Assembly: GCA_019058315.1 (NCBI GenBank)
Contig: JAHPZH010000005.1
Coordinates: 32,001 to 96,000 of the forward strand
Reading direction: 5' to 3'
DNA from: Candidatus Helarchaeota archaeon
Lineage (GTDB): Archaea; Asgardarchaeota; Lokiarchaeia; Helarchaeales; RDOG01
Length of the DNA: 64,000 nt
The position numbers and the translations under genes are program-made. The notes beneath the pieces are model-generated. The model was given only the letters and a program-made list of their open reading frames with translations. It had not been told where the DNA came from and did no database searches. Every line of letters starts with the position of its first letter. Positions within the stretch are counted from its first letter, which is position 1. Shown piece by piece: positions 41,081-59,888 of this stretch.

Positions 41081-42016
41081 ATGATTGATAAGCTCTATAT
41101 TATGTATGAGAACGGTGTATGCGTTTTTGAAAAGATTTATTATACTAGTTTGGATACAATCAAGACAGATTCCCAGCTATTTACTGGTTTCTTAACTGCT
41201 ATTGGTGGTTTTGCTGCAGAAGCTTTGGGAAGCGGATTACAATCGATGCATTTACAGACCGGAGAACAACTCGCAATAATGAAACATGAGTCAAGAATGG
41301 TCGGAATCTGTATCGCAGACGGACGCGATCACGACAAGCTGATTTCATCATTATTAAGAAAGATATTAGATCGATTTTATGAAATATTTAAGAGAGAAGT
41401 TGACATAATGGATGCGTCGTTACTTGGAAAAACTGATAAATTTGGAAAAGAAGTCGATTCTATTTTAAAAAATAAAGCTTCAAGTAGAGCAGATTGGAAA
41501 ATGGGGTTAGGAATATTAGTTGGATTTGCTATTTTAGGCTTGTTAACTTTTGTGATTTTAAATAGGACACTTTTAGAAAATATTCCAAGTCCATTATTTT
41601 TAGCCATACGAAATCCCATAAGTGCAATTTATATTGGAATGCTTGGAGAGTCAATAGGAGGAATATTATCATTAATAATGTTTTTTGTTGCAATATTATT
41701 TTTTATTCCATCAGTTATAACAGGCTATTTGAGCGGTAGTCGTGTTAGAGGACTAATTTCTGGTACAATTATAACTGTTATCGCCTATATTACCTTAATT
41801 TTAGCCAGATTTCAAATAATGGCAAGATTGGGACTGGATTTAAAGGATTGGTTCTTCAGTTTATCCCCTCTTATACTTTTCCTAACTCTATCAGTTTCAT
41901 TTAGTGCGGGTTATATCGCAGAGCGACTACACCTTTATACATTTCCAGAACCAGATAAAGAAATGGGAAAATTAGATAGGATTTTAAAATCTATAAAAGA
42001 TAAGATTGGTTTATAA
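41081..42016 (+). CDS. Longin domain fused to ~4 C-terminal TM helices (paralog A)
   Basis: KLYIMYENGVCVF...DSQLFTGFLTAIGGFA...KILDRFYEIF longin, followed by hydrophobic segments. Confidence 0.78.
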   Translation: MIDKLYIMYENGVCVFEKIYYTSLDTIKTDSQLFTGFLTAIGGFAAEALGSGLQSMHLQTGEQLAIMKHESRMVGICIADGRDHDKLISSLLRKILDRFYEIFKREVDIMDASLLGKTDKFGKEVDSILKNKASSRADWKMGLGILVGFAILGLLTFVILNRTLLENIPSPLFLAIRNPISAIYIGMLGESIGGILSLIMFFVAILFFIPSVITGYLSGSRVRGLISGTIITVIAYITLILARFQIMARLGLDLKDWFFSLSPLILFLTLSVSFSAGYIAERLHLYTFPEPDKEMGKLDRILKSIKDKIGL

Positions 42017-42026
42017 GGAATATTCG

Positions 42027-42953
42027 ATGATTCACAAATTATATTTAATGTTTGAAAGTGGAATTTGTATTTTTGAAAAAAATTTTTTTACTCATTTGGG
42101 TAAAGAAGAAAATACTCAAGTTTTTACTGGTTTCATCTCAGCTATCGGAAATTTTGCTTCCGAAGCTCTTGGTAGTACTCTACAGTCCATTCGATTACAA
42201 ACAGGAGAACAGCTTGCTATAATGAGGCATGAGCCATCAAAATTAGTTGTCATATGTGTTGCCGATGGCCGAGATCATGACAAATTACTGGCATCAATAT
42301 TACTAAAAATTCTTGATCGTTTTTTTGAAATTTTCAAAAAGGAAATTGAAGCGGAAGATACATCAATAGCTGAAAAATCTAAAGATTTTGAAAAAGAAAT
42401 TGAAATAATTCTAAAGAAAAAAATTTCAAGTAGAACTAATTTTAAAATGTTTGTTGGTATATTTTTAGGACTAACAATCTTGAGTTTATTAATTTTTATA
42501 GCTTTAAACAGAACTTTTTTAAATAATTTTCCAGGACCATTATTTTTTGCAGCGATGAATAATCCATTAATGCTATTTTTTATTGGTTCGATTGGAGAAT
42601 CAATAGGTTCAATTTTAGCATCCTTAATGTTTTTTATTGGATTTTTATTTATGTTACCTGCATTTATAACAGGTTTCTTGAGTGGAACCAGAGTAAGAGG
42701 ATTAATTTCTGGATTCATTATTATAATTGGTACATATTTAATACTTTTTTTAAGTGCCGTTCGTTTACAGGTTGTTTTAGGATTAGACTTAAGAGGATGG
42801 TTTCTTGGAATATCTCCATTAATCTTCTTCTTGACGTTATCAGTTTCATTTATTTCAGGATATTTAGCTGAGAGATTACGTCTTTATACTTTTGAAGAAC
42901 CAACAATTAAAAAAGGAAGGTTATCTAAGCTGTTAATTTTTAAAAAGAGATAA
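42027..42953 (+). CDS. Longin domain fused to ~4 C-terminal TM helices (paralog B)
   Basis: Collinear with paralog A. ATG 42027 (MIHKLY) aligns with MIDKLY. Confidence 0.78.
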   Translation: MIHKLYLMFESGICIFEKNFFTHLGKEENTQVFTGFISAIGNFASEALGSTLQSIRLQTGEQLAIMRHEPSKLVVICVADGRDHDKLLASILLKILDRFFEIFKKEIEAEDTSIAEKSKDFEKEIEIILKKKISSRTNFKMFVGIFLGLTILSLLIFIALNRTFLNNFPGPLFFAAMNNPLMLFFIGSIGESIGSILASLMFFIGFLFMLPAFITGFLSGTRVRGLISGFIIIIGTYLILFLSAVRLQVVLGLDLRGWFLGISPLIFFLTLSVSFISGYLAERLRLYTFEEPTIKKGRLSKLLIFKKR

Positions 42954-49207: not shown

Positions 49208-52200
49208 ATGGGAGATTTCAAGATGAGAATTAATAATTTTAAAAGAAAAGGAAAGATTTTCACAATTCTGATTATCATGCTTATTAGTTTTTCAAACATT
49301 CATTATATCTTTCAGAAAAATCAGCTTGATCCATATAATTTAGCATTATTTACAAATATTTTTACTTCTAATATAAGAATGCCTTCTAATGATGGTCCAT
49401 TTTCCACTAAGTCCTCCTCTAGTGATGTCATTGAGGGTAATGGAGGAAAGTTAGACACTTTATTATATGAAAATATTAGTGGTCAAGTTCTTTCTTGTGA
49501 TACTTCTTCTGATTTTTCTATTTATACAAATGGATGGAATATAACCAAAACAGATCTAATTTTCACAAATGTTAAGGCACCAACAGATATAGATATTGAA
49601 ATATCAGAACCATTTGCGGGTGAACATAGATTGGATACTTTAAGAGCGATGTCATTTACTGTAGGAAGCGTTACCTATTTAAAGAAAATAAATGTTAATT
49701 TGCGATTAAAAAAACTCTACCCTGGTAATGATTTAGATTTATCTGTATTTAATACAAAAGCTACTGGGGAACCCAATAATATTATTTATAATGAAGGATT
49801 TGATTTAGATAGCTATTCTGATGGTTGGATTGAATTAAATTTAAGTTCGGATGTCCTATTGGACCCTGCTGATACTAATAATAGTAAATTTTTCATAGGG
49901 TTAAAAGAAGGTTCTATTTTACCTTCTCCTCAAGTCTATTGGTATTATTTAAATGATCTCTCTACCCCAGATGGTTCAAATGAAGGTGATGACTATTCTT
50001 ACAGTTTTGGAATGTGGACTTCTAATGATGTAGATTATACTTTAGGTCTCACATTAGATACTAATACATTACCATCAAATATAGAATTAAAAGTGAATGG
50101 TATTAATGTGGAGAATTTACAAATAGGTAATGGTACTTGGAATTCATCTGTTTTATATATTGGACCTAATGTTACTTTTAATGTCGAAGCAAATACTTCA
50201 GCGAGATTTGATGTAAATTGGACATGTCAATTTATAAATCAAACATTATCTAATACTTATTTTATTTCTAATGCGAGTAAATCAATTGTCAATTGGAATT
50301 CATCTATTCCAGCTAAATTTCATGCTAATTCATATGCTAGAGGCATTAATATGACAATACCCCTAGATTGGAATATTACTGAAGTAATATATGATTCTAG
50401 CTCACATTTATCTTGGGTTAATATAACAGAAAATGGTAAAAAAATTAATATTATATCCAATGTTTTTAATTCTACCTGGATAGCAGTTTGTATTGGACCA
50501 AACTATGTACGTGAAATAAGCTTAGAAAGAAAGGTTGATTCTAGCTTCACTCCTGTTAACGGTCCAGTTAATGGAACAGATACTATTAGAATAAACGCAT
50601 CTATAAAAGACGGTAAGGGTATTGAAATAATTAATGGGAATGGAAATTTATCTATTTTTAATCCAGAAGAAACTCTAAATTATATTGATCATACACCCCC
50701 AAACAGTACCCATGCTTTAAATGGAATTATAAGTTTTACACCTTGGCGAATTAATTTAACTGGAACAATGGGTGGAAATTATACAATTCAAGTAGTATGG
50801 TATAACCAGACAGAAGTGGGGATAAATGTTACTTCTATTGATATTAAATCAATTCCAACTCAATTAACATTGATTTATAATACCATATCGGCTAATACAG
50901 GGGATCCAATTGATGCTATAATATATTATAACGACTCATATTGGGGATATGGTATTCCAAATGCTAATTTTTATTTAATTAATAACTATACTTCTGGTTA
51001 CCATTTTGATTTTACTGTAACTCCATTATCACCAATGGGTAATTATTCAATTGCAATTTCTACAGCTACATTAACCGCAGGCTCTTATGAATTTATTATT
51101 ATTGCTAATAAATCAGTATATAATACATCAACTGTTAATATCACATTTACTATTCAAGGGAATAAATCTTATGCTTGGATTGTTTCTGGAGCTACACCAG
51201 TTGGACCGTTACTTGGTGGAAGAACCTTAGATGATGGATCTTTTGTTTACGATAATTACACAACAACTCCTTTAAATGATCCCTACTGGGATGATACTTC
51301 TCATAAACTTACAATTTATTACAATGATACTGTAGGAAATCCTATTACAATCGAAGATGTTGATCTGGTTGAAATCAGATGGGATAATAACGAGACAGAC
51401 ATTATCCCAACTTTAGTGGGATCTGGCTTATATAATGTAACCATTGATACAACAGGAATTACTGCTGGAATACATTTCTTTTCAATCATTATGCAAACTT
51501 CTAATTATTATAGAGCATATTTGAATGTGAGTGTAACTGTAAAACCCGTTCCTACTCAAGTTGACCCCGGATTATATGGAAATGTTACTCAATATGAAGG
51601 AGAGGATTTAGAATTCTGGGTGGCATATTTAGATGTTTATCATTCAAATCAACGGATAGAATCTCCACCAGCCATTGTAAAATATAATATTACGGGCTTT
51701 CCAAATATAAATGGAACCATGACATATATAGGAGCCCCAAATTTTGCTTATCGTGGTGAATTTAACCTTGGAGACTTAAGTCTGGGATCTTATAACTTAA
51801 CCATCTATGCTAGTGCTGGCACTGAATACCTTGAAGCAATTAGAAATATAACCGTTAATGTAATTCCAAAATATAATGTCTCTTTAAACTTAATTGATAT
51901 TCCATTTGGTATTAGAGTTGGAGAGGAATTAATCATTAGAGCAAAATTAATTAATGATATTACAGGTGATCCTCTCAAGTATGTGCCCATAAATGTAAAA
52001 ATTACTTTTCTTGATAGTCAAAATGGAACCATATCAGAATTAGAAGCGGTTCTAATCACAAATAATAATGGAACAATAGAAGAATCCTTAATTGTTCCTC
52101 AAAATGTGAAATATGCTAATATTTCTTTATTTTATAACGGGGATGTCAATGTAACTTCGGCAGTAAATAACACAATTCTTAATATCGCCCCCAAAAGATC

Positions 52201-53920
52201 AGTTCATTTGATAGTATTTTCTCCAACACCTACAATATGGGTGGGGGAACTTTTATTTATTGGTGCAAGTTTAACATACGGAGATACTGGGGAAGCGATT
52301 TTTGATGGATCTGTTGAGTTTGAAATAATATTTTTTGGTGAAAGAATTCTCCGATTTACTCAGATTGGAAAAACAGGTTCTGATGGAATTACTTATATAA
52401 GTTTTCCTATTCCATCAGATATTTCGGGAGTTTATTTAATTATGATAAATGCACGACATTCTGGGTCAAATACCGAAGCTTCAACTACTTCAAATCTGTT
52501 TCCTATTAATCTGCTATCAACAGGAAGAATTTTTATAGAAAACATATGGCTTTTTATAGCAATAATTGGAGCGGTTTCTGCTATGGGGACTTATAAAACA
52601 TGGAATTATTTGAGAAATAGAGGGTGGAAGAAGAAGATTGACCATTTATTTATAATAACGCATGGGGGTTCACCTATAAAAGAGTGGAAAATGGGGGGAG
52701 CTATACTAGACGCAACTTTGGTTTCGGGAGCCTTAAGCGGGATTGCATCTATTGTACGAGAAATGACAAAAAGTGTTAAAAAATTAACTTCAATTGATCA
52801 TGAAGATAAAAAATTAATATTTGCTTATGGTAAATTTGTAATTGGGGTATTAATTACTGAAAAAGATCAACCAATAATACATAAAAAACTAGATAAATTT
52901 GTAGATAATTTTGAATCAAAGTATTTTTATTATTTATCCTCTTGGGATGGTAATTTAAAGTATTTTCAAGATGCAGATGATTTATTAGTTGATATTTTCC
53001 CATTTGCAATCCCAGAGACTGTTCAAGAAAAGATTAAATTATATCCAGATATTATTAAAAAGGAAAATAGAATAAGAGAATTAAATATTGAAGCGGGACA
53101 TCTTCTTATGGAAAATAAACCAGCTATGGCAATTGAATCTTATATAGTTGCTGCTAAAATAGCTATTGAAATTGGAGACTTAGAAATATTTGAGAATTTC
53201 ATTATAAATATAAATAATCTTCAAAAAAGACTCTCAAAATTTGAAAAAAGACCAATGAGAAAATTAGATATTAAAACCGAAACTAAAGATAAAAAGAATC
53301 TTGCAACTAATATCGAAAAAATTCAAAAAGCAATAAAAATCTCAGACTTCCTTACAGCATTAAAATTAACTACAAAAAATGCAAACATTTACATGGACCT
53401 AGGGCAATATGAAATTGTTTCAGAATTGTTTCAAAAGATCAATGAATATGGTAAAAAACACAAATTGAAAATGAGAGAGATTCAGTTAAAAGAAAGAACT
53501 CAAAAAACCACAGATAAGATCAACAAGTTGAAAATGAAAGCTGAACTAGAGATTGAAAATGGAAATTTTTTAAAAGCTGCTGATAAGTATAATGAGGCTG
53601 CTATACTCGCAATACAAAATAATGATAGAGATAACTTTCAAGACCTTATGTCAAAAGTCGAAAAATATCAAAAAACTGAAGAAGAGACTACTTTGAAAGC
53701 AGAAAAAGAACGACAATTACTAATTCTTAAGGAATCAATACCGAGGATATTAGCAGAGGCAGAATCAGCAAAACTATCTGGTGATTATGAAAAAATAATT
53801 GAATTATATTTAAAAGTAGCCAATATCAATCAAAGTATAGGTCATATGGAAAATTTTATGAAATATATAACAATAGCGAAAGAATATAGGACAAAACTTG
53901 AAAATTTTACAAACAAATGA
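49208..53920 (+). CDS. Large single-pass surface protein: extracellular beta-sandwich repeats, TM, cytoplasmic longin + TPR/SNAP-like repeats
   Basis: N-term hydrophobic signal; about 1080 aa rich in N-x-S/T and G.Y.i Ig-like patterns; TM IWLFIAIIGAVSAMG (~52545-52600); longin HLFIITHGGSPI...LVSGALSGI; helical repeats AIESYIVAA, AADKYNEAA. Confidence 0.82.
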   Translation: MGDFKMRINNFKRKGKIFTILIIMLISFSNIHYIFQKNQLDPYNLALFTNIFTSNIRMPSNDGPFSTKSSSSDVIEGNGGKLDTLLYENISGQVLSCDTSSDFSIYTNGWNITKTDLIFTNVKAPTDIDIEISEPFAGEHRLDTLRAMSFTVGSVTYLKKINVNLRLKKLYPGNDLDLSVFNTKATGEPNNIIYNEGFDLDSYSDGWIELNLSSDVLLDPADTNNSKFFIGLKEGSILPSPQVYWYYLNDLSTPDGSNEGDDYSYSFGMWTSNDVDYTLGLTLDTNTLPSNIELKVNGINVENLQIGNGTWNSSVLYIGPNVTFNVEANTSARFDVNWTCQFINQTLSNTYFISNASKSIVNWNSSIPAKFHANSYARGINMTIPLDWNITEVIYDSSSHLSWVNITENGKKINIISNVFNSTWIAVCIGPNYVREISLERKVDSSFTPVNGPVNGTDTIRINASIKDGKGIEIINGNGNLSIFNPEETLNYIDHTPPNSTHALNGIISFTPWRINLTGTMGGNYTIQVVWYNQTEVGINVTSIDIKSIPTQLTLIYNTISANTGDPIDAIIYYNDSYWGYGIPNANFYLINNYTSGYHFDFTVTPLSPMGNYSIAISTATLTAGSYEFIIIANKSVYNTSTVNITFTIQGNKSYAWIVSGATPVGPLLGGRTLDDGSFVYDNYTTTPLNDPYWDDTSHKLTIYYNDTVGNPITIEDVDLVEIRWDNNETDIIPTLVGSGLYNVTIDTTGITAGIHFFSIIMQTSNYYRAYLNVSVTVKPVPTQVDPGLYGNVTQYEGEDLEFWVAYLDVYHSNQRIESPPAIVKYNITGFPNINGTMTYIGAPNFAYRGEFNLGDLSLGSYNLTIYASAGTEYLEAIRNITVNVIPKYNVSLNLIDIPFGIRVGEELIIRAKLINDITGDPLKYVPINVKITFLDSQNGTISELEAVLITNNNGTIEESLIVPQNVKYANISLFYNGDVNVTSAVNNTILNIAPKRSVHLIVFSPTPTIWVGELLFIGASLTYGDTGEAIFDGSVEFEIIFFGERILRFTQIGKTGSDGITYISFPIPSDISGVYLIMINARHSGSNTEASTTSNLFPINLLSTGRIFIENIWLFIAIIGAVSAMGTYKTWNYLRNRGWKKKIDHLFIITHGGSPIKEWKMGGAILDATLVSGALSGIASIVREMTKSVKKLTSIDHEDKKLIFAYGKFVIGVLITEKDQPIIHKKLDKFVDNFESKYFYYLSSWDGNLKYFQDADDLLVDIFPFAIPETVQEKIKLYPDIIKKENRIRELNIEAGHLLMENKPAMAIESYIVAAKIAIEIGDLEIFENFIININNLQKRLSKFEKRPMRKLDIKTETKDKKNLATNIEKIQKAIKISDFLTALKLTTKNANIYMDLGQYEIVSELFQKINEYGKKHKLKMREIQLKERTQKTTDKINKLKMKAELEIENGNFLKAADKYNEAAILAIQNNDRDNFQDLMSKVEKYQKTEEETTLKAEKERQLLILKESIPRILAEAESAKLSGDYEKIIELYLKVANINQSIGHMENFMKYITIAKEYRTKLENFTNK

Positions 53921-53932
53921 GGGCGTGTTATA

Positions 53933-54451
53933 TTGGAGAAAATAATTTATAAAATTCTTTTATTAGGTGATCCTGGAGTAGGTAAAACAGCTCTTATAAC
54001 TCAATATATTGATAATAGATTTATAACTGATTATAAAGCCACTCTTGGATTTGATATCTTTATCAAAAAAATTATAGGATCCAAAGCAGAATTTTCATTA
54101 GCAATCTGGGATCTCGCGGGACAAGAGAAATATACATCCTTAAAACAATCATATTATGAAGGTGCCCAGGGAATTATTATGGTATATGATGTAACAGACC
54201 GAGAAAGCTATAAAAATATAATACAGTGGTTAACAGAATTGCAAAAAGTAGTAAAAACAATTCCTATTATGTTAGTAGGAAATAAAATTGATTTAACTGA
54301 CGAAATTAAAATCAATACAGAGGATGGGCAACGACTTAAAACAAGAATTAAAGCAATTAATTTTTATGAGACTTCAGCAAAAACTGGACATAATGTTAAT
54401 ACAATTTTTGAAGAACTTGCAGATATTATTAATAAACATTCATCGATATAG
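53933..54451 (+). CDS. Rab-like small GTPase
   Basis: G1 GDPGVGKT, G2 YKATLG, G3 WDLAGQE, G4 NKID, G5 ETSAK; no C-terminal Cys prenylation motif. Confidence 0.95.
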   Translation: MEKIIYKILLLGDPGVGKTALITQYIDNRFITDYKATLGFDIFIKKIIGSKAEFSLAIWDLAGQEKYTSLKQSYYEGAQGIIMVYDVTDRESYKNIIQWLTELQKVVKTIPIMLVGNKIDLTDEIKINTEDGQRLKTRIKAINFYETSAKTGHNVNTIFEELADIINKHSSI

Positions 54452-54513: not shown

Positions 54514-54906
54514 TTGAATTTAGTTTTAGAACACGACATTTCCTACTATTGCAAAAAATTTAACTGTGGAAAATGCTGTGAAAAGGGTTGGGATATCTTT
54601 GTTACTGAATCTGATATAAGAAAGTGGGAGGAAAAAAAACCTGAAATCTTAAATCAAATAACAACTAAAAATATAAATGGAATAAGAAAAAAATTGCTTA
54701 AAAAACAACCAATCAAACTGCTAGATGGAAAAATACGTCAATTATGTGTGTTTTATGACTTTGAAAAAAAATGTACTATACACGATGTAAATCCTGAAAT
54801 ATGTAAGAAATTTTCGTGTTTGCATCATGTCTATTTCATTTTTCAATTTTTTAATAAAATTTCTGAATTAATAGAAGAATCTGATAAGAAAATGTTGAAC
54901 TCTTAA
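54514..54906 (+). CDS. YkgJ family cysteine-cluster protein
   Basis: CKKFNCGKCC...CVFY..KKCTIHDVNPEICKKFSC. Confidence 0.85.
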   Translation: MNLVLEHDISYYCKKFNCGKCCEKGWDIFVTESDIRKWEEKKPEILNQITTKNINGIRKKLLKKQPIKLLDGKIRQLCVFYDFEKKCTIHDVNPEICKKFSCLHHVYFIFQFFNKISELIEESDKKMLNS

Positions 54907-54927: not shown

Positions 54928-57588
54928 ATGGCTTATATGAAAGATGAACTTCGAGAAGAAGACTCTAATATCGAGCAAAAATTAAAAGAAACTCAAATTA
55001 AGAGTGAGTTTGATTATCAAAATTTATTTAATGATATTCCTTGTGCTCTTTGGGTTATAAATTTTTCAGATATTAAATTGTACATTGATGAATTACGTAA
55101 TAAAGGAATTAAAGATTTTAGATCTTTTTTTAAAAATGACCCTGATTTTTATTCAACTTGTGTTTCTTTCATGAATATTATAGATGTCAACAGAGCAGCT
55201 ATACAATTATATCAAGCCAAAAACAAGGAGGAAGTTTTACAATATTTAAATGATACCTTTTGCAAAGAATCTTTAGATTTATTTTTAGAAGGAATTATTT
55301 CTATAATTGAGGGTAATTTACCGTTTGAAGGCGAGACTATAATTCAAACTATAAAGGGAAATAAAATTAATGTATTTTATAATTGGTTTATAGCTTCTGG
55401 TTTTGAAAAAAGCTTATCTAAAGTATTTGTAAGTCTCCATGATATTAGTGACCGGAAACAAATAGAATTATTATTACGTAAAGAACGAGATTTAGTCCAA
55501 AAATATCTAGATTTAATTGGAGTTCTTCTTATAACTTTAAATAAAAAAGGTGAAATAACCCTTATCAATCAAAAAGGATATCAGACTTTAGGATATGAAG
55601 AACAAGAGCTTATTGGTAAAAATTGGTTTGATAATTGTTTACCAGAACGAAATATAGAGGAAGTGAAATTAGTTTTTCAAAAATTAGTGGTAGGAGAAAT
55701 TGAACCAGTTGAATATTATGAAAATCCAATTATAACTAAAAGTGGTGAAGAAAGAATTATCGCTTGGCATAATACTGTTTTGACAGATGATATTGGAAAT
55801 ATTATTGGAATATTAAGTTCTGGAGAGGATATTACTGAGCGAATAAGAGGAGAAAAAAAATTAGCAAACCAAATGTATTTAATTGAGTCTATAAATACAA
55901 TATTAAAAGAAGCTTTAAGATTAGACAGTGAAATAAATGTTGCCAAAATGTGTCTAATTTTTGCTGAGGAGTTGACGAATAGCAAATTTGGCTTTATTGG
56001 TGAAATAAATGAAGATGGATATTTCGATACTATTGCTTTAAGTAATCCAGGATGGGAGGCGTGCACCATGGAAAAAACCGCTGCAATAAAATTACTTAAA
56101 AACATGGAGATTCGCGGCATTTGGGGGGAAGTTTTAAAAAGTGGGAAAACTTTAATAGCAGATGATCCCGAATCTCATCCTTCAAGTGTTGGTACTCCTG
56201 TTGGTCACCCAAGATTAACAAGTTTTTTAGGAGTTCCGTTATTTTACGCTGGAAATACATTTGGAATGATTGCTGTGGCTAATAAAGAAATAGAGTATAA
56301 TTCTGATGATCAGCAAGCCATAGAAACTCTTTCAATATCATTCATGGAAGCTTTGATGAATAAAAGAGCAGAAATAAAACTAAAAAATGCCAAAGAAACA
56401 CTTTTAGAAGCGCAAAAAATAGCTCATATAGGAAATTGGGATTGGAATATAGTTACTAATGAATTAAGTTGGTCTGATGAAATTTACCGCATATTCGGGC
56501 TTGCTCCACAAGAATTTGGAGCAACATATGAAGCATTTTTAAATAGTGTCCATCCCGACGATAGAGAATTTGTTACAAAATCCGTTAATGAAGCCATTTA
56601 TGATAAAAAACCTTACTCTATTGATCATCGTATTATTTTACCTGATGGGACACAACGAATAGTACATGAACTAGGTAAAGTTACATTTGATAAGGATGAT
56701 AAACCAATTAGAATGTTAGGAACTGTCCAAGATATCACCGAATTAAAGCTAATTGAAAATGAATTAAAGAAACATAGGGACAACCTTGAAGAATTAGTTT
56801 TAGAGCGTACAAGAGAATTGGAATTAGCAAATAAAAAACTTCAATTAGAAATTGAACAAAGAATAAAAGCTGAAAAAGATCTGGAACTATTCGTATATGC
56901 AGTTTCTCATGAAATAAGAACACCAATTTCAGTTTTAGTCCAATCTATAGATAATTTAGAGGTTTATGGAGAAAAATTATCAGAGAATTTGAAATCAAAA
57001 TTAATAAAAACGATGTCTAGAAATACATCATTATTATCCGAATTAATAGAGGATCTTTTATTAGCTTCAAGGATAGAAAGAACAGAAATAGAATTAAAGT
57101 GGGAAAATTACAAGCTATTCGATGTTTTAAAAGATGTATTAGACCAAATGGAACCTCGTTACAAATCAAGAGGAATAAAAATTGATACAGATGTGGATAT
57201 AAATATTCAATTATTTGGTGATATCAAACGTATTGCACAGATCTTTCGAATATTTATTGATAATGCTATAAAATATTCAAAAGAAAGATCACTGATAAAG
57301 ATTAAAGTATTTAATAAATATAAAGGAGAATTTAATCCGAAATCAATTGATGGTGTTTTAATTCAGTTCATTGATAATGGAATAGGTATTAAGAAGGAAG
57401 ATATCCCTAATTTGTTTAAAAAATATTTCAGATCTAAAGACGCAATGAATATTCCTGGTACAGGTTTAGGACTAACTATTGCAAAAACTCTAACTTATTA
57501 TCATCAAGGAGAAATATTTGTAGAAAGTGATTATGGTAAAGGAACGACTTTTTCCATTTTTCTTCCCAGATTAGAGGAACAACCATAA
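54928..57588 (+). CDS. Cytoplasmic PAS-PAS-GAF-PAS sensor histidine kinase
   Basis: PAS motifs (ELIGKNWF, WSDEIYRIFG..VHPDD), GAF (SFLGVPL..GMIAVAN), H-box VSHEIRTP, N-box DNAIKYS, DNGIGI, GTGLGL. Confidence 0.95.
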   Translation: MAYMKDELREEDSNIEQKLKETQIKSEFDYQNLFNDIPCALWVINFSDIKLYIDELRNKGIKDFRSFFKNDPDFYSTCVSFMNIIDVNRAAIQLYQAKNKEEVLQYLNDTFCKESLDLFLEGIISIIEGNLPFEGETIIQTIKGNKINVFYNWFIASGFEKSLSKVFVSLHDISDRKQIELLLRKERDLVQKYLDLIGVLLITLNKKGEITLINQKGYQTLGYEEQELIGKNWFDNCLPERNIEEVKLVFQKLVVGEIEPVEYYENPIITKSGEERIIAWHNTVLTDDIGNIIGILSSGEDITERIRGEKKLANQMYLIESINTILKEALRLDSEINVAKMCLIFAEELTNSKFGFIGEINEDGYFDTIALSNPGWEACTMEKTAAIKLLKNMEIRGIWGEVLKSGKTLIADDPESHPSSVGTPVGHPRLTSFLGVPLFYAGNTFGMIAVANKEIEYNSDDQQAIETLSISFMEALMNKRAEIKLKNAKETLLEAQKIAHIGNWDWNIVTNELSWSDEIYRIFGLAPQEFGATYEAFLNSVHPDDREFVTKSVNEAIYDKKPYSIDHRIILPDGTQRIVHELGKVTFDKDDKPIRMLGTVQDITELKLIENELKKHRDNLEELVLERTRELELANKKLQLEIEQRIKAEKDLELFVYAVSHEIRTPISVLVQSIDNLEVYGEKLSENLKSKLIKTMSRNTSLLSELIEDLLLASRIERTEIELKWENYKLFDVLKDVLDQMEPRYKSRGIKIDTDVDINIQLFGDIKRIAQIFRIFIDNAIKYSKERSLIKIKVFNKYKGEFNPKSIDGVLIQFIDNGIGIKKEDIPNLFKKYFRSKDAMNIPGTGLGLTIAKTLTYYHQGEIFVESDYGKGTTFSIFLPRLEEQP

Positions 57589-57648: not shown

Positions 57649-58536
57649 TTGAAGCCATTAATACTATGTGTAGATGACAATGAAGATATTTTATTAAATC
57701 TACGGTTAACATTAGAATTTAATGATTATGAAGTAATCACGGGAAAAAATGGCATAGAGGGTATAATCATATTATCCGAACTCGGGCGACTTCCAGACAT
57801 CATAATAAGTGATATAATGATGCCCGAAATGAATGGATATGATTTCTTTAAAAAAGTTTCTGAAAACTCGAAGTGGAATCGCATTCCATTTTTATTTTTA
57901 ACAGCTCGAACTTCTCCAACAGATGTTAGATTTGGCAAAATGTTAGGTGTTGATGATTATCTTACTAAACCCTTTAAAAAAGAAGATTTGATGGCCATAA
58001 TTGCTGGAAAACTTGCTAGAAGAAGAAAAACAGAAGAAGTTAGTGAAAAAGTTGAAGAAGTTCTCTCCTCTTTAAAAATTGATGAAAAACCTTCAATCTC
58101 TATTGAAGAAAAATTTTTAGTAAATTTATTATTAGTGTTTTGGGACGATAAAACGGGTCCTAGGGTTTTAAATTACTATCCAAAAGACATTAAATTACCT
58201 TTTTCTGTTGATAAAATAGGTGTTCAATTATATAATTCTATAGTTTCTATTTATGGACAAGGAAAAGTTGCTGAAGCTCAAGGTATATTATTAAATATAA
58301 AAAATATCGAGAGGGATGGTTTTATTTATTTTGATTCATATCCAGATAGTTCAATCAGAGGAGGTGAACAACAATATATGTTGGGGGTTATTGCTCCAAA
58401 GATTAATTATTTTGAATCTTTAAAAATTGGTGAACGCTTTAAACATATATCTTCACATATTAAATTAAAGGAAGATTGGGATTTTAAAAGTCATTGGGAA
58501 GAAATTGCAAATCTTTTATCAACTCCTTCACTGTAG
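57649..58536 (+). CDS. Response regulator with C-terminal uDENN/longin-like output domain
   Basis: Receiver VDD, ISDIMMP (phospho-Asp), FLTA, KP. C-term LLLVFWDDKTGPRVLNYYP...DSSIRGGEQQYMLGVI. Confidence 0.85.
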   Translation: MKPLILCVDDNEDILLNLRLTLEFNDYEVITGKNGIEGIIILSELGRLPDIIISDIMMPEMNGYDFFKKVSENSKWNRIPFLFLTARTSPTDVRFGKMLGVDDYLTKPFKKEDLMAIIAGKLARRRKTEEVSEKVEEVLSSLKIDEKPSISIEEKFLVNLLLVFWDDKTGPRVLNYYPKDIKLPFSVDKIGVQLYNSIVSIYGQGKVAEAQGILLNIKNIERDGFIYFDSYPDSSIRGGEQQYMLGVIAPKINYFESLKIGERFKHISSHIKLKEDWDFKSHWEEIANLLSTPSL

Positions 58537-58668: not shown

Positions 58669-58956
58669 ATGATGACAAAACAAGATTTTGAGATATATTT
58701 AGATTATATGATAGATTATTACGGAGTGGAAAGATCAGAATTACGAATATCGGCTTATAAGGTGCAAGGTGATGATAGCTATGAATTTTTCGAGAGTGCT
58801 AGAATAATTTCGATTTTAGAGTCAGGAATTATGGTTTGGAAATATGAGGATGAGGAAGAAGAGGAAAATGAGTCAGCATTCGTCTCATGGTCCGCCATAG
58901 ACGAAATTTCAATAATGCTAAGAGAAGTCGATGAAGATGAAGAATATGAAGATTAA
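58669..58956 (+). CDS. Small acidic hypothetical protein
   Basis: 95 aa, D/E-rich; AAGGT SD-like motif upstream. Confidence 0.65.
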   Translation: MMTKQDFEIYLDYMIDYYGVERSELRISAYKVQGDDSYEFFESARIISILESGIMVWKYEDEEEEENESAFVSWSAIDEISIMLREVDEDEEYED

Positions 58957-58961
58957 TTTTT

Positions 58962-59888
58962 TCAATCCTTTCTACTTAATAAATTTTCAGCTTTATAGTG
59001 TATAATTGTTGCTCCATGCTTATAATATTCTTTTAATGTTATCCAATTTTTTGAAGGATATTCAAACTCTTTAAGAGATCCAAGTATAGAAGAACCAAGC
59101 CAAGAAGAATATTGTTCAGCTTGAGTGATTTTAATAGGAAAGGTCGCTAAATTTTCTAATTCCTTTTGTAATCGTGCTTTCATACCCTTAATTTTTAACC
59201 CTGATACTATTATGTTCTTGGATAAATCTTCTCTAATAGTTGAATCTAGTTTCATTAGGGTATCAAAAATTTCTACGTCCAAAGGTTTTATCTTATCTTT
59301 ACCCGTCATTTTAGGTTTAAAATAGATTTCTGGAGCTAAAAATAATTCATCTAATTCGAGTGTAGTACCATCAGGTAATGTATAAGATTTTTTACTACTT
59401 TCCTTATCAGGATCTAGTGCTACAAAACAAAGTTTTTCGCGAATATCTCTTAAAATTTCCCTTTCTGCTGAAGTACGAAAATCATAACTCTTTTTTTTTA
59501 GGATCTTTTGTAGATAACTCGTTACATCTTCAATTCCTAAATCTATTTTTTTGATAAAATCAGTTAATGGGTAAGAATCCCAAACTGGTACGATATAAGT
59601 TGGATTTTTTAACCTAATAACTAACCCAGTAGTTTTTCCAACACACATTGCATCTGCCAAAGCTGCATTGACTAAAAGTATAGCCGGAATATTAAAATCT
59701 TCAAATAGAAAGCTACAAATCTTTTCCCTTTGTGACCTAGAAGTTAGTGGATGCTCGATAAGGATTAATCCGTGTTCAGATGGATCGATTTTTAAATCAT
59801 TATAGAAAATATAATGAACAAATTTCTTTATAGCATTAAAATCGACTATTTCTTCATTAATTATTGGAAATGTATTTCTTAAAACCAT
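58962..59888 (-). CDS. Divergent, N-terminally truncated actin-family protein
   Basis: FYNDLKIDPSEH, REKI..FLFEDFNIPA, TSAEREILRDIREKLCFVALD, SYTLPDG, YSSWLGSSILGSL, WITLKEY..HGATIIHYK all match actin from about residue 65 onward. Confidence 0.92.
   Translation of the reverse strand: MVLRNTFPIINEEIVDFNAIKKFVHYIFYNDLKIDPSEHGLILIEHPLTSRSQREKICSFLFEDFNIPAILLVNAALADAMCVGKTTGLVIRLKNPTYIVPVWDSYPLTDFIKKIDLGIEDVTSYLQKILKKKSYDFRTSAEREILRDIREKLCFVALDPDKESSKKSYTLPDGTTLELDELFLAPEIYFKPKMTGKDKIKPLDVEIFDTLMKLDSTIREDLSKNIIVSGLKIKGMKARLQKELENLATFPIKITQAEQYSSWLGSSILGSLKEFEYPSKNWITLKEYYKHGATIIHYKAENLLSRKD

Follow-up and report, generated by a model that had tools for sequence, protein, structure and literature searches.

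A receptor-like protein and a Rab-like GTPase in tandem

The window analysed here is a stretch of 64,000 nucleotides from a Candidatus Helarchaeota archaeon (assembly GCA_019058315.1, contig JAHPZH010000005.1, positions 32,001 to 96,000), AT-rich with a GC content of 27–34% and belonging to a genome of 5.8 Mb in 12 contigs. At its centre of interest lie two genes on the plus strand, an open reading frame (ORF) at 49208..53920 that encodes a receptor-like membrane protein of 1570 amino acids (P0001) and a complete ORF at 53933..54451 that encodes a Rab-like small GTPase of 172 amino acids (P0002). A gap of 12 nt separates the receptor stop from the start of the GTPase, which is preceded by a GAGG-like motif resembling a Shine-Dalgarno sequence, and in both ORFs and their spacing the locus is as an earlier preliminary description of this DNA, made from the letters alone, had given it. 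P0001 has three orthologues (P0005, P0006 and P0007), all from Asgard metagenome-assembled genomes (MAGs) carrying the database labels Helarchaeota or Hodarchaeota. The domain that follows the membrane helix of P0001 adopts a longin fold in structural models, and in the host genome the genes of this longin family are significantly enriched beside, and fused with, GTPase genes.

P0001 begins with a basic N-terminus in front of a hydropathy peak at residues ~17–35 (49256..49312, plus strand, like all parts of the pair), which is a predicted signal peptide or signal anchor. The ectodomain of about 1070 amino acids (residues ~36–1107, 49313..52528) is followed by a single transmembrane (TM) helix, again a hydropathy peak, at residues ~1108–1127 (52529..52588), and by a cytoplasmic tail of ~435–440 amino acids that opens with the basic stretch KTWNYLRNRGWKKK directly after the helix, as the positive-inside rule predicts. 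The sequon-rich ectodomain and the single TM helix had both been claimed before, and the counts agree: 47 N-x-S/T sequons precede the TM helix where ~19.7 are expected from composition, and 2 follow it where 2.3 are expected. Judged by these sequence features, P0001 is a bitopic, type-I-like cell-surface protein with its ectodomain facing outward and predicted heavy N-glycosylation. Searches with Pfam and NCBIfam of the entire receptor, of its tail and of 10 relatives gave no match at E<=0.1 for any part, so the ectodomain carries no Pfam family, and comparing the ectodomain and the tail with themselves by BLAST found no significant internal sequence repeats. An Atlas search linked the ectodomain to archaeal lectin-like/Big domains with a score of 0.84, which is a lead only.

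The second protein, P0002, matches Pfam Ras at 1.4e-54, and its best relatives in the PDB are Rab1A (3.4e-38), Rab3, Sec4 and a Thorarchaeota Rab. All motifs from G1 to G5 are intact, with GDPGVGKT at G1, T37 in switch I, DLAGQE at G3, NKID at G4 and SAK at G5, and they are invariant in the alignment with its relatives. The TTG start is backed by orthologues opening with MEK(I/S)IYK, one of which starts with TTG and two with ATG. P0002 contains no cysteine at all, has no C-terminal extension, ending right after its last helix, and has no Arf-like N-terminal helix; the absence of a prenylation motif had been stated in the preliminary description and extends here to all 24 aligned relatives, which likewise lack cysteine and end after the last helix. 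The hypervariable tail with a prenylatable cysteine that defines canonical Rabs is thus absent from P0002, and in view of its G motifs and its similarity to Rabs it is best called Rab-like rather than a canonical Rab. Throughout the host genome, in which an iterated hidden Markov model (HMM) finds 118 small GTPases, only 3 have a cysteine among their last 5 residues. Asgard archaea in general encode dozens to more than 100 GTPases of the Ras superfamily, and no CAAX boxes, prenyltransferases, GDI or REP (PMC4917890, Table 1).

Fold of the cytoplasmic tail

The domain behind the membrane helix spans residues ~1144–1263 (52637..52996) and was modelled with AlphaFold2 (AF2) both on its own and as part of the 435-residue tail, with mean predicted local distance difference test (pLDDT) values of 85.8 and 91.3, respectively. 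Secondary structure assigned with DSSP in the two models (strands 9–16 and 21–26, helix 34–52, strands 60–63, 66–72 and 76–82, helices 87–109 and 115–128) follows the order b1-b2-a1-b3-b4-b5-a2-a3, which is that of longin domains and not that of Roadblock domains. All significant Foldseek matches in the PDB, with E values from 2e-5 to 1e-3, are longin domains, and they include the N-terminal parts of AP sigma and mu subunits, COPI zeta and delta, Mon1-Ccz1, Fuzzy/Inturned, VAMP7 and Bet5. The same holds for the 50 best matches returned by VIA-align, where the highest Z scores belong to Sec22b (14.4, with a root mean square deviation of 2.6 Å over 123 amino acids), to Fuzzy from CPLANE, the guanine nucleotide exchange factor (GEF) of Rab23 (14.2), and to AP-1 sigma3 (13.8), and where TRAPP Bet5/Trs23 (12.0), Mon1-Ccz1 (10.7) and SRX (10.3) are found as well. 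As far as models can tell, the longin fold proposed in the preliminary description is therefore confirmed. At the level of sequence the kinship is hardly visible: the family profile run against the PDB sequences retrieved only TRAPPC1 (E 0.31) and Trs23 (E 0.57), neither of which is significant.

An exhaustive search with the post-TM domain yielded 683 cluster representatives at E<=1e-3 and an alignment of 65 sequences, in which G19, L36, G73, E101, G113, F118 and F129 are the conserved columns. An identity as a Roadblock/LC7 domain of the MglB type was considered and rejected, since the 23 matches of PF03259 (Robl_LC7) in the genome all lie outside the longin family, and since the model opens with two strands and lacks an N-terminal helix before the first strand. 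Between orthologues, identity is 68–79% in the longin domain, 50–66% in the helical part that follows it and 30–33% in the ectodomain (compared with P0005 and P0007). The longin domain is thus the most conserved part of a protein with a fast-diverging ectodomain, which fits a conserved cytoplasmic function.

The remainder of the tail, residues ~1270–1569 (53015..53914), is modelled as entirely helical with pLDDT above 90 and consists of helical hairpins, two of whose helices are ~50 residues long; four hairpin motifs of ~45 amino acids can be seen both by eye and in the model. The preliminary description had spoken of TPR/SNAP-like repeats. The hairpins themselves are predicted with confidence, but no Pfam TPR match was found in the region, and the similarity to known repeats is local and weak: the Foldseek match to the TPRs of LGN/Pins reaches E 4e-4 at a TM-score of only 0.16–0.20, and VIA superposes tail model residues ~289–431 on MIT domains, with Z 10.7 for the tandem MIT of calpain-7 and Z 8.4–9.1 for Vps4, katanin p60 and the Atg1 tMIT, and also finds Rap TPRs. 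For helical bundles, Z values of 8–10.7 to such MIT and Rap-TPR proteins lie below the level that is informative. NCBI labels the orthologue P0005 a 'tetratricopeptide repeat protein', and as a word for the modelled shape of the region, not as an assignment, TPR/SNAP-like is a fair description. The region is seen only in the three orthologues: a search of 7 genomes of the order found no orthologue of the helical tail, and one of 400 genomes of the phylum gave no more than 3 partial matches, all weak. The MIT-like superposition would be of interest in an organism with ESCRT-III.

Linkage of longin genes and small GTPases

The predicted operon does not end with P0002 but runs on, in the same orientation and with gaps of 21–132 nt, into a two-component system. 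Its further members are a CxxCxxCC protein, putatively Zn/Fe-chelating (54514..54906, plus strand; Pfam PF03692, 2.3e-7), a PAS-GAF-PAS histidine kinase recognised by Pfam (54928..57588, plus), a response regulator whose Pfam REC domain covers residues 5–118 only and is followed by an uncharacterised output domain of 175 amino acids (57649..58536, plus), and, as the last gene of the co-oriented block, an acidic protein of 95 amino acids that belongs to no family (58669..58956, plus). On the other side of the receptor gene and divergently transcribed from it lies the gene of the soluble protein P0158 (48180..49010, minus strand), in which a basic N-terminal part precedes a C-terminal longin from the family of the receptor domain, with 33% identity to the latter (E 1e-13).

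The output domain of the response regulator, which has no Pfam family, has four paralogues with 42–51% identity in the host genome, G000 (C1:456465-456989, C5:359850-360371, C5:678321-678827 and C1:552577-553092), two of which are located ~0.5–0.7 kb from GTPase genes. No similarity of this output domain was found to the profile of the receptor-type longin, to PDB sequences or in the Atlas.

Receptor and GTPase stay linked in two of the three orthologous loci, contrary to the absence of conserved linkage that the preliminary description had named as a refutation. At locus L009, whose receptor tail is 70% identical, the order is receptor, 12 nt, GTPase (83% identical to P0002, also with a TTG start), CxxCxxCC protein, PAS-GAF kinase, response regulator and the 95-aa protein, the last of these 92% identical and in the same place. 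Locus L011, with a tail identity of 56%, has the same upstream genes, including an orthologue of P0158 (75% identical) at the same position; its receptor is followed by an unrelated inserted 95-aa gene, by two tandem GTPases (52 and 54% identical to P0002), by the CxxCxxCC gene and by a PAS gene, of which the start is visible. The first of these two GTPase copies (L011:11270-11794, plus strand) reads WDIAGIE where the others have WD(L/I)AGQE, so that the catalytic Gln is replaced by Ile, and judging from this motif it may be GTP-locked or a pseudo-GTPase. The third locus, L010, has no GTPase within 13 kb and is the sole orthologous locus without one. There, the codon corresponding to Glu392 is an in-frame TGA (L010:5995-6003), which splits the receptor gene into ORFs of 391 and 1176 amino acids; a pseudogene, an error in sequencing and recoding are all conceivable.

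Beyond this locus, the longin family is greatly expanded. An iterated HMM run on all ORFs of the host genome finds ~142 members (the protein search gave 93 matches), 78 of the 137 that are not fused to a GTPase having a predicted TM segment. Their architectures comprise ~18 stand-alone longin domains, ~50 proteins of 350–390 amino acids with 6–7 TM helices and a C-terminal longin, groups of ~700–750 and ~1112–1137 amino acids with a C-terminal longin, 5 longin-GTPase fusions, and at least 9 receptor-like proteins of 514–2021 amino acids in which a signal peptide and a sequon-rich ectodomain are followed by a TM helix and immediately by the longin. Of 400 genomes surveyed in the phylum, 397 contain matches to the family profile, and the host genome has the most first-look longin candidates of all (192 versus at most 99 elsewhere). 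A shape search of the Atlas returned Asgard clusters of ~350 amino acids labelled 'hypothetical protein', one DUF11/CARDB-bearing cluster and one response-regulator cluster. The 7TM-longin genes also occur in tandem arrays, seven in a row at G000 C5:1284350-1292965 and four at C11:127048-132965, and these arrays have Rab-like GTPase genes at their flanks or between their members, the GTPases ranking among the closest paralogues of P0002. Another pair of a TM-longin and a GTPase (C5:425650-427490), looked for across the class, has no orthologues outside the family.

Members of this family stand beside GTPase genes more often than other genes do. Of the 137 longin genes not fused to a GTPase, 20 have a GTPase gene at a distance of at most 300 bp, compared with 3.4% of other genes, which is a 4.3-fold enrichment (binomial p=5e-8); it is found for the TM-containing subset (9/78, p=0.0014), and the soluble subset contributes 11/59. 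Seen from the side of the GTPases, 11 of the 30 closest Rab-like paralogues of P0002 have a longin neighbour versus 11 of 87 others (odds ratio 4.0, p=0.006), and so do 15 of 49 stand-alone GTPases of up to 200 amino acids; eight of the longin-family partners in the GTPase-side count are membrane proteins. Furthermore, the longin domain as defined by the HMM is fused with a GTPase in the 5 host proteins mentioned above and, as an N-terminal longin, in one protein each of genomes G134 and G137, which lends support of the Rosetta-stone type to a functional link.

Fortuitous adjacency, meaning chance pairs among 118 GTPase and 142 longin genes that persist in close relatives, is a highly improbable explanation of these data. 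It can draw on the 3.4% of unrelated genes that adjoin a GTPase just the same, on the closeness of the orthologous loci (56–70% tail identity), which are syntenic throughout, and on the one orthologue without a GTPase; yet chance accounts neither for the enrichment and the domain fusions nor for the preferential pairing of the Rab-like subfamily nearest P0002 with longin genes, and the one locus without a GTPase is also the one with a disrupted receptor gene.

A candidate membrane platform for a soluble GTPase

In the reading we prefer, the locus encodes a receptor that is co-transcribed with a Rab-like GTPase having no means of its own to reach the membrane. The membrane-tethered longin, only a few residues past the bilayer, would probably pair with a second longin, either its own copy or P0158, and such paired longins would form the type of platform that docks small GTPases in TRAPP, Mon1-Ccz1, CPLANE and SRX-SRbeta. 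This platform would bring the GTPase encoded next to it to the plasma membrane and would probably control its nucleotide state, while the helical repeats may present the complex to further partners and the downstream two-component system would probably provide a second input into the same GTPase. What the analysis shows is the architecture, the fold, the layout of the operon, the expansion of the family and its excess beside or fused with GTPases; physical binding, the direction of regulation and any link to extracellular signals are what we infer. That the tail and the GTPase are coupled directly in function is to our mind evenly balanced between true and false. A complex prediction of the full tail with a second longin copy and the GTPase gave ipSAE values of 0.09 and 0.02, below the mark, and this single run carries no weight either way.

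As to what such a platform would do, longin proteins that act as GTPase-activating proteins (GAPs) by means of an arginine finger are known in FLCN-FNIP, in NPRL2/3 of GATOR1 and in C9orf72-SMCR8. The alignment of 65 sequences contains no invariant or nearly invariant Arg column, which, as a test at the level of sequence, argues against a GAP of the FLCN/NPRL2 type. Compared with an arginine-finger GAP, a role as GEF or anchor is thus the more likely one for the tail of P0001.

Several observations weigh against direct coupling. Longin domains also serve roles unrelated to GTPases, in the regulation of SNAREs and as cores of coat adaptors, and none of the curated sequence families of longins (Pfam Longin, Sybindin, Sedlin, Clat_adaptor_s, SRX and others) recognises the receptor domain. 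Some 85% of the paralogous longins lack an adjoining GTPase, among them the closest paralogues of the receptor longin, which are receptor-like proteins of 788–821 amino acids, so the domain clearly has GTPase-independent or trans-acting uses. Widening the distance to ±1500 nt leaves an enrichment of only 2.3-fold (16.8% versus 7.4%). No orthologue of the tail was found among 400 other genomes of the phylum, and since the orthologous loci are closely related and syntenic throughout, the conserved gene order is by itself modest evidence. For two complete genomes of Lokiarchaeia, the 26 and 30 best-scoring loci of the family include 0 and 2 adjacent GTPases and one fusion each, close to the chance level of ~3–4% that follows from 41 and 49 Ras-family matches. 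This agrees with what has been stated for MK-D1, in which GTPase genes generally do not stand in operons with Roadblock, longin or TRAPPC3 genes and in which GTPases are difficult to match to their regulators by genome layout (Tran et al., 2024; PMC10933270). With enrichment in the host genome and near-chance values in the two complete genomes, the pairing characterises this lineage, or some part of the family, and not the entire family.

In a rival reading, P0001 would be a surface adhesin or envelope glycoprotein whose tail serves as a scaffold, pairing with other longins such as P0158 or tying the envelope to cytoskeletal or ESCRT-like partners, with the GTPase being run by the two-component system and never touching the tail. 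The fast evolution of the ectodomain is adhesin-like, most of the 142 longin paralogues do without a GTPase neighbour, the helical part has its MIT-like and TPR-like matches, and the operon brings its own histidine kinase and response regulator, the latter with output paralogues that are also found near GTPase genes. We nevertheless consider a scaffold of this kind possible but rather doubtful, as the 12-nt spacing and the order of receptor and GTPase are kept in L009 and their proximity even in the rearranged L011, as the longin family is significantly enriched beside GTPases and fused with them, and as the helical matches stay below the level informative for helical bundles.

The recruiting platform that we favour has counterparts in the Rab GEFs built on longins, namely the TRAPP core (Bet5/Trs23), Mon1-Ccz1, Fuzzy-Inturned (CPLANE) and BLOC-3. 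The receptor domain shares with them the longin fold (Z 10–14) and, putatively, a Rab-like target, and the adjoining gene of P0158 offers the second longin that a platform built as a heterodimer would call for. It differs from them in that no relationship is apparent at the sequence level (E 0.3–0.6 in the PDB profile search) and in that the receptor has a single longin, not a tri-longin arrangement, and is tethered covalently by its own TM helix. A further precedent is the signal recognition particle receptor, in which SRX, the longin of SRalpha, docks the small GTPase SRbeta at the membrane in a 1:1 complex; the polarity is reversed, however, because in that receptor the GTPase carries the TM segment and the longin is soluble, whereas at the present locus the longin protein carries it and the GTPase is soluble.

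SRX-SRbeta is at the same time a precedent for an effector-type complex of one longin and one GTPase, and the SRX match of the receptor domain (Z 10.3) can be read in that sense. The tail would then be an effector of the GTPase in a scheme of inside-out control, in which the GTP-bound GTPase, switched by the two-component or response-regulator branch, would bind the tail and so change the surface protein in its clustering, its turnover or its conformation. The lack of a conserved catalytic Arg in the family alignment is compatible with this, and helical hairpins are typical surfaces of Rab effectors. The best structural matches, however, include longins of GEFs (Fuzzy, TRAPP, Mon1-Ccz1) as well as longins that are not GEFs, and the present data do not separate an effector from a GEF or anchor; we regard inside-out control as distinctly unlikely.

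Two other classes of longin and longin-like proteins invite comparison with the proposed receptor platform. The longin SNAREs Sec22b, VAMP7 and Ykt6 are also membrane proteins with a cytosolic longin, and Sec22b is the best match of all, but their longin is N-terminal and accompanied by a SNARE motif and a C-terminal tail anchor, whereas in P0001, which has no SNARE-family match in Pfam, the longin follows the TM helix and an ectodomain of ~1070 amino acids. MglA-MglB and Ragulator-Rag resemble the locus in placing a profilin-like alpha/beta platform, in their case of the Roadblock type, beside a small GTPase, and Ragulator is membrane-anchored as well; the receptor domain, with its topology lacking an N-terminal helix, is not a Roadblock domain.

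Within the Asgard archaea, abundant longin and Roadblock proteins, longin-GTPase fusions, NPRL2-like longins fused to two-component domains and extensive domain shuffling are already known (Liu et al., bioRxiv 10.1101/2020.10.19.343400; PMC4917890; PMC10933270), Asgard longin proteins and fusions having also been described by Klinger et al. (2016, as cited in PMC4917890). The receptor family has phylum and fold in common with these, and a single HMM detects both the receptor longins and the N-terminal longin of the longin-GTPase fusions. The difference from MK-D1 lies in the gene layout, GTPase genes being generally outside longin operons there (PMC10933270) and inside them, with a significant excess, in the host genome. 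In the searchable literature, which did not cover Klinger et al. (2016), we found no description of proteins combining a signal peptide, a glycosylated ectodomain, a TM helix and a longin or of polytopic membrane proteins with a longin, and neither a significant excess of such genes beside Rab-like GTPases nor a conserved receptor-GTPase operon. The locus thus adds to a known Asgard theme of longins and GTPases, with a mechanism that we infer from its architecture. It also touches on questions posed as unanswered in PMC4917890, namely whether operon analysis can reveal the targets of Asgard GTPases, and by what means and in which places these GTPases work in the absence of lipid anchors.

A more general proposal may be attached to it, tentatively and with the reservation that we consider it rather doubtful. 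Membrane-embedded longin proteins, which in the host genome comprise P0001, at least 8 further proteins of the ectodomain-TM-longin type and ~50 polytopic TM-longin proteins, might be how Asgard archaea make up for the lipid anchors that their small GTPases lack. Each of them would hold a docking and exchange site in a fixed place and so bring a soluble Rab-like GTPase to one particular membrane protein, and the present locus would encode a receptor that contains its own longin GEF platform and is connected to a two-component system. If true, receptor-to-Rab signalling and longin-based membrane identity would have had a forerunner among prokaryotes. Even apart from the general proposal, the locus offers a defined, conserved and expressible pair, consisting of a TM protein with a cytoplasmic longin and a Rab-like GTPase of minimal size, next to which lie a candidate for the second longin and a two-component system, and it makes the question of how Asgard GTPases without lipid anchors reach the membrane testable. 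Should the pairing be real, a protein would give such a GTPase its membrane address, and longin-GTPase platforms would have been coupled to surface proteins before eukaryotes; should it not be, there would still be a family of ~142 proteins to explain, over half of which are membrane proteins.

Two further observations in the window concern genes outside the co-oriented block. Upstream, the tandem overlapping genes 41081-42016 and 42006-42953 (plus strand) encode proteins of 311 and 315 amino acids in which an N-terminal longin of the same family is followed by 4–5 predicted TM helices, the reverse of the arrangement in the 7TM-longin proteins. Just downstream of the block, on the opposite strand, an actin-family protein of 308 amino acids is encoded at 58962-59888 (minus), matching Pfam Actin at 6e-55 over profile positions 65–408 only.

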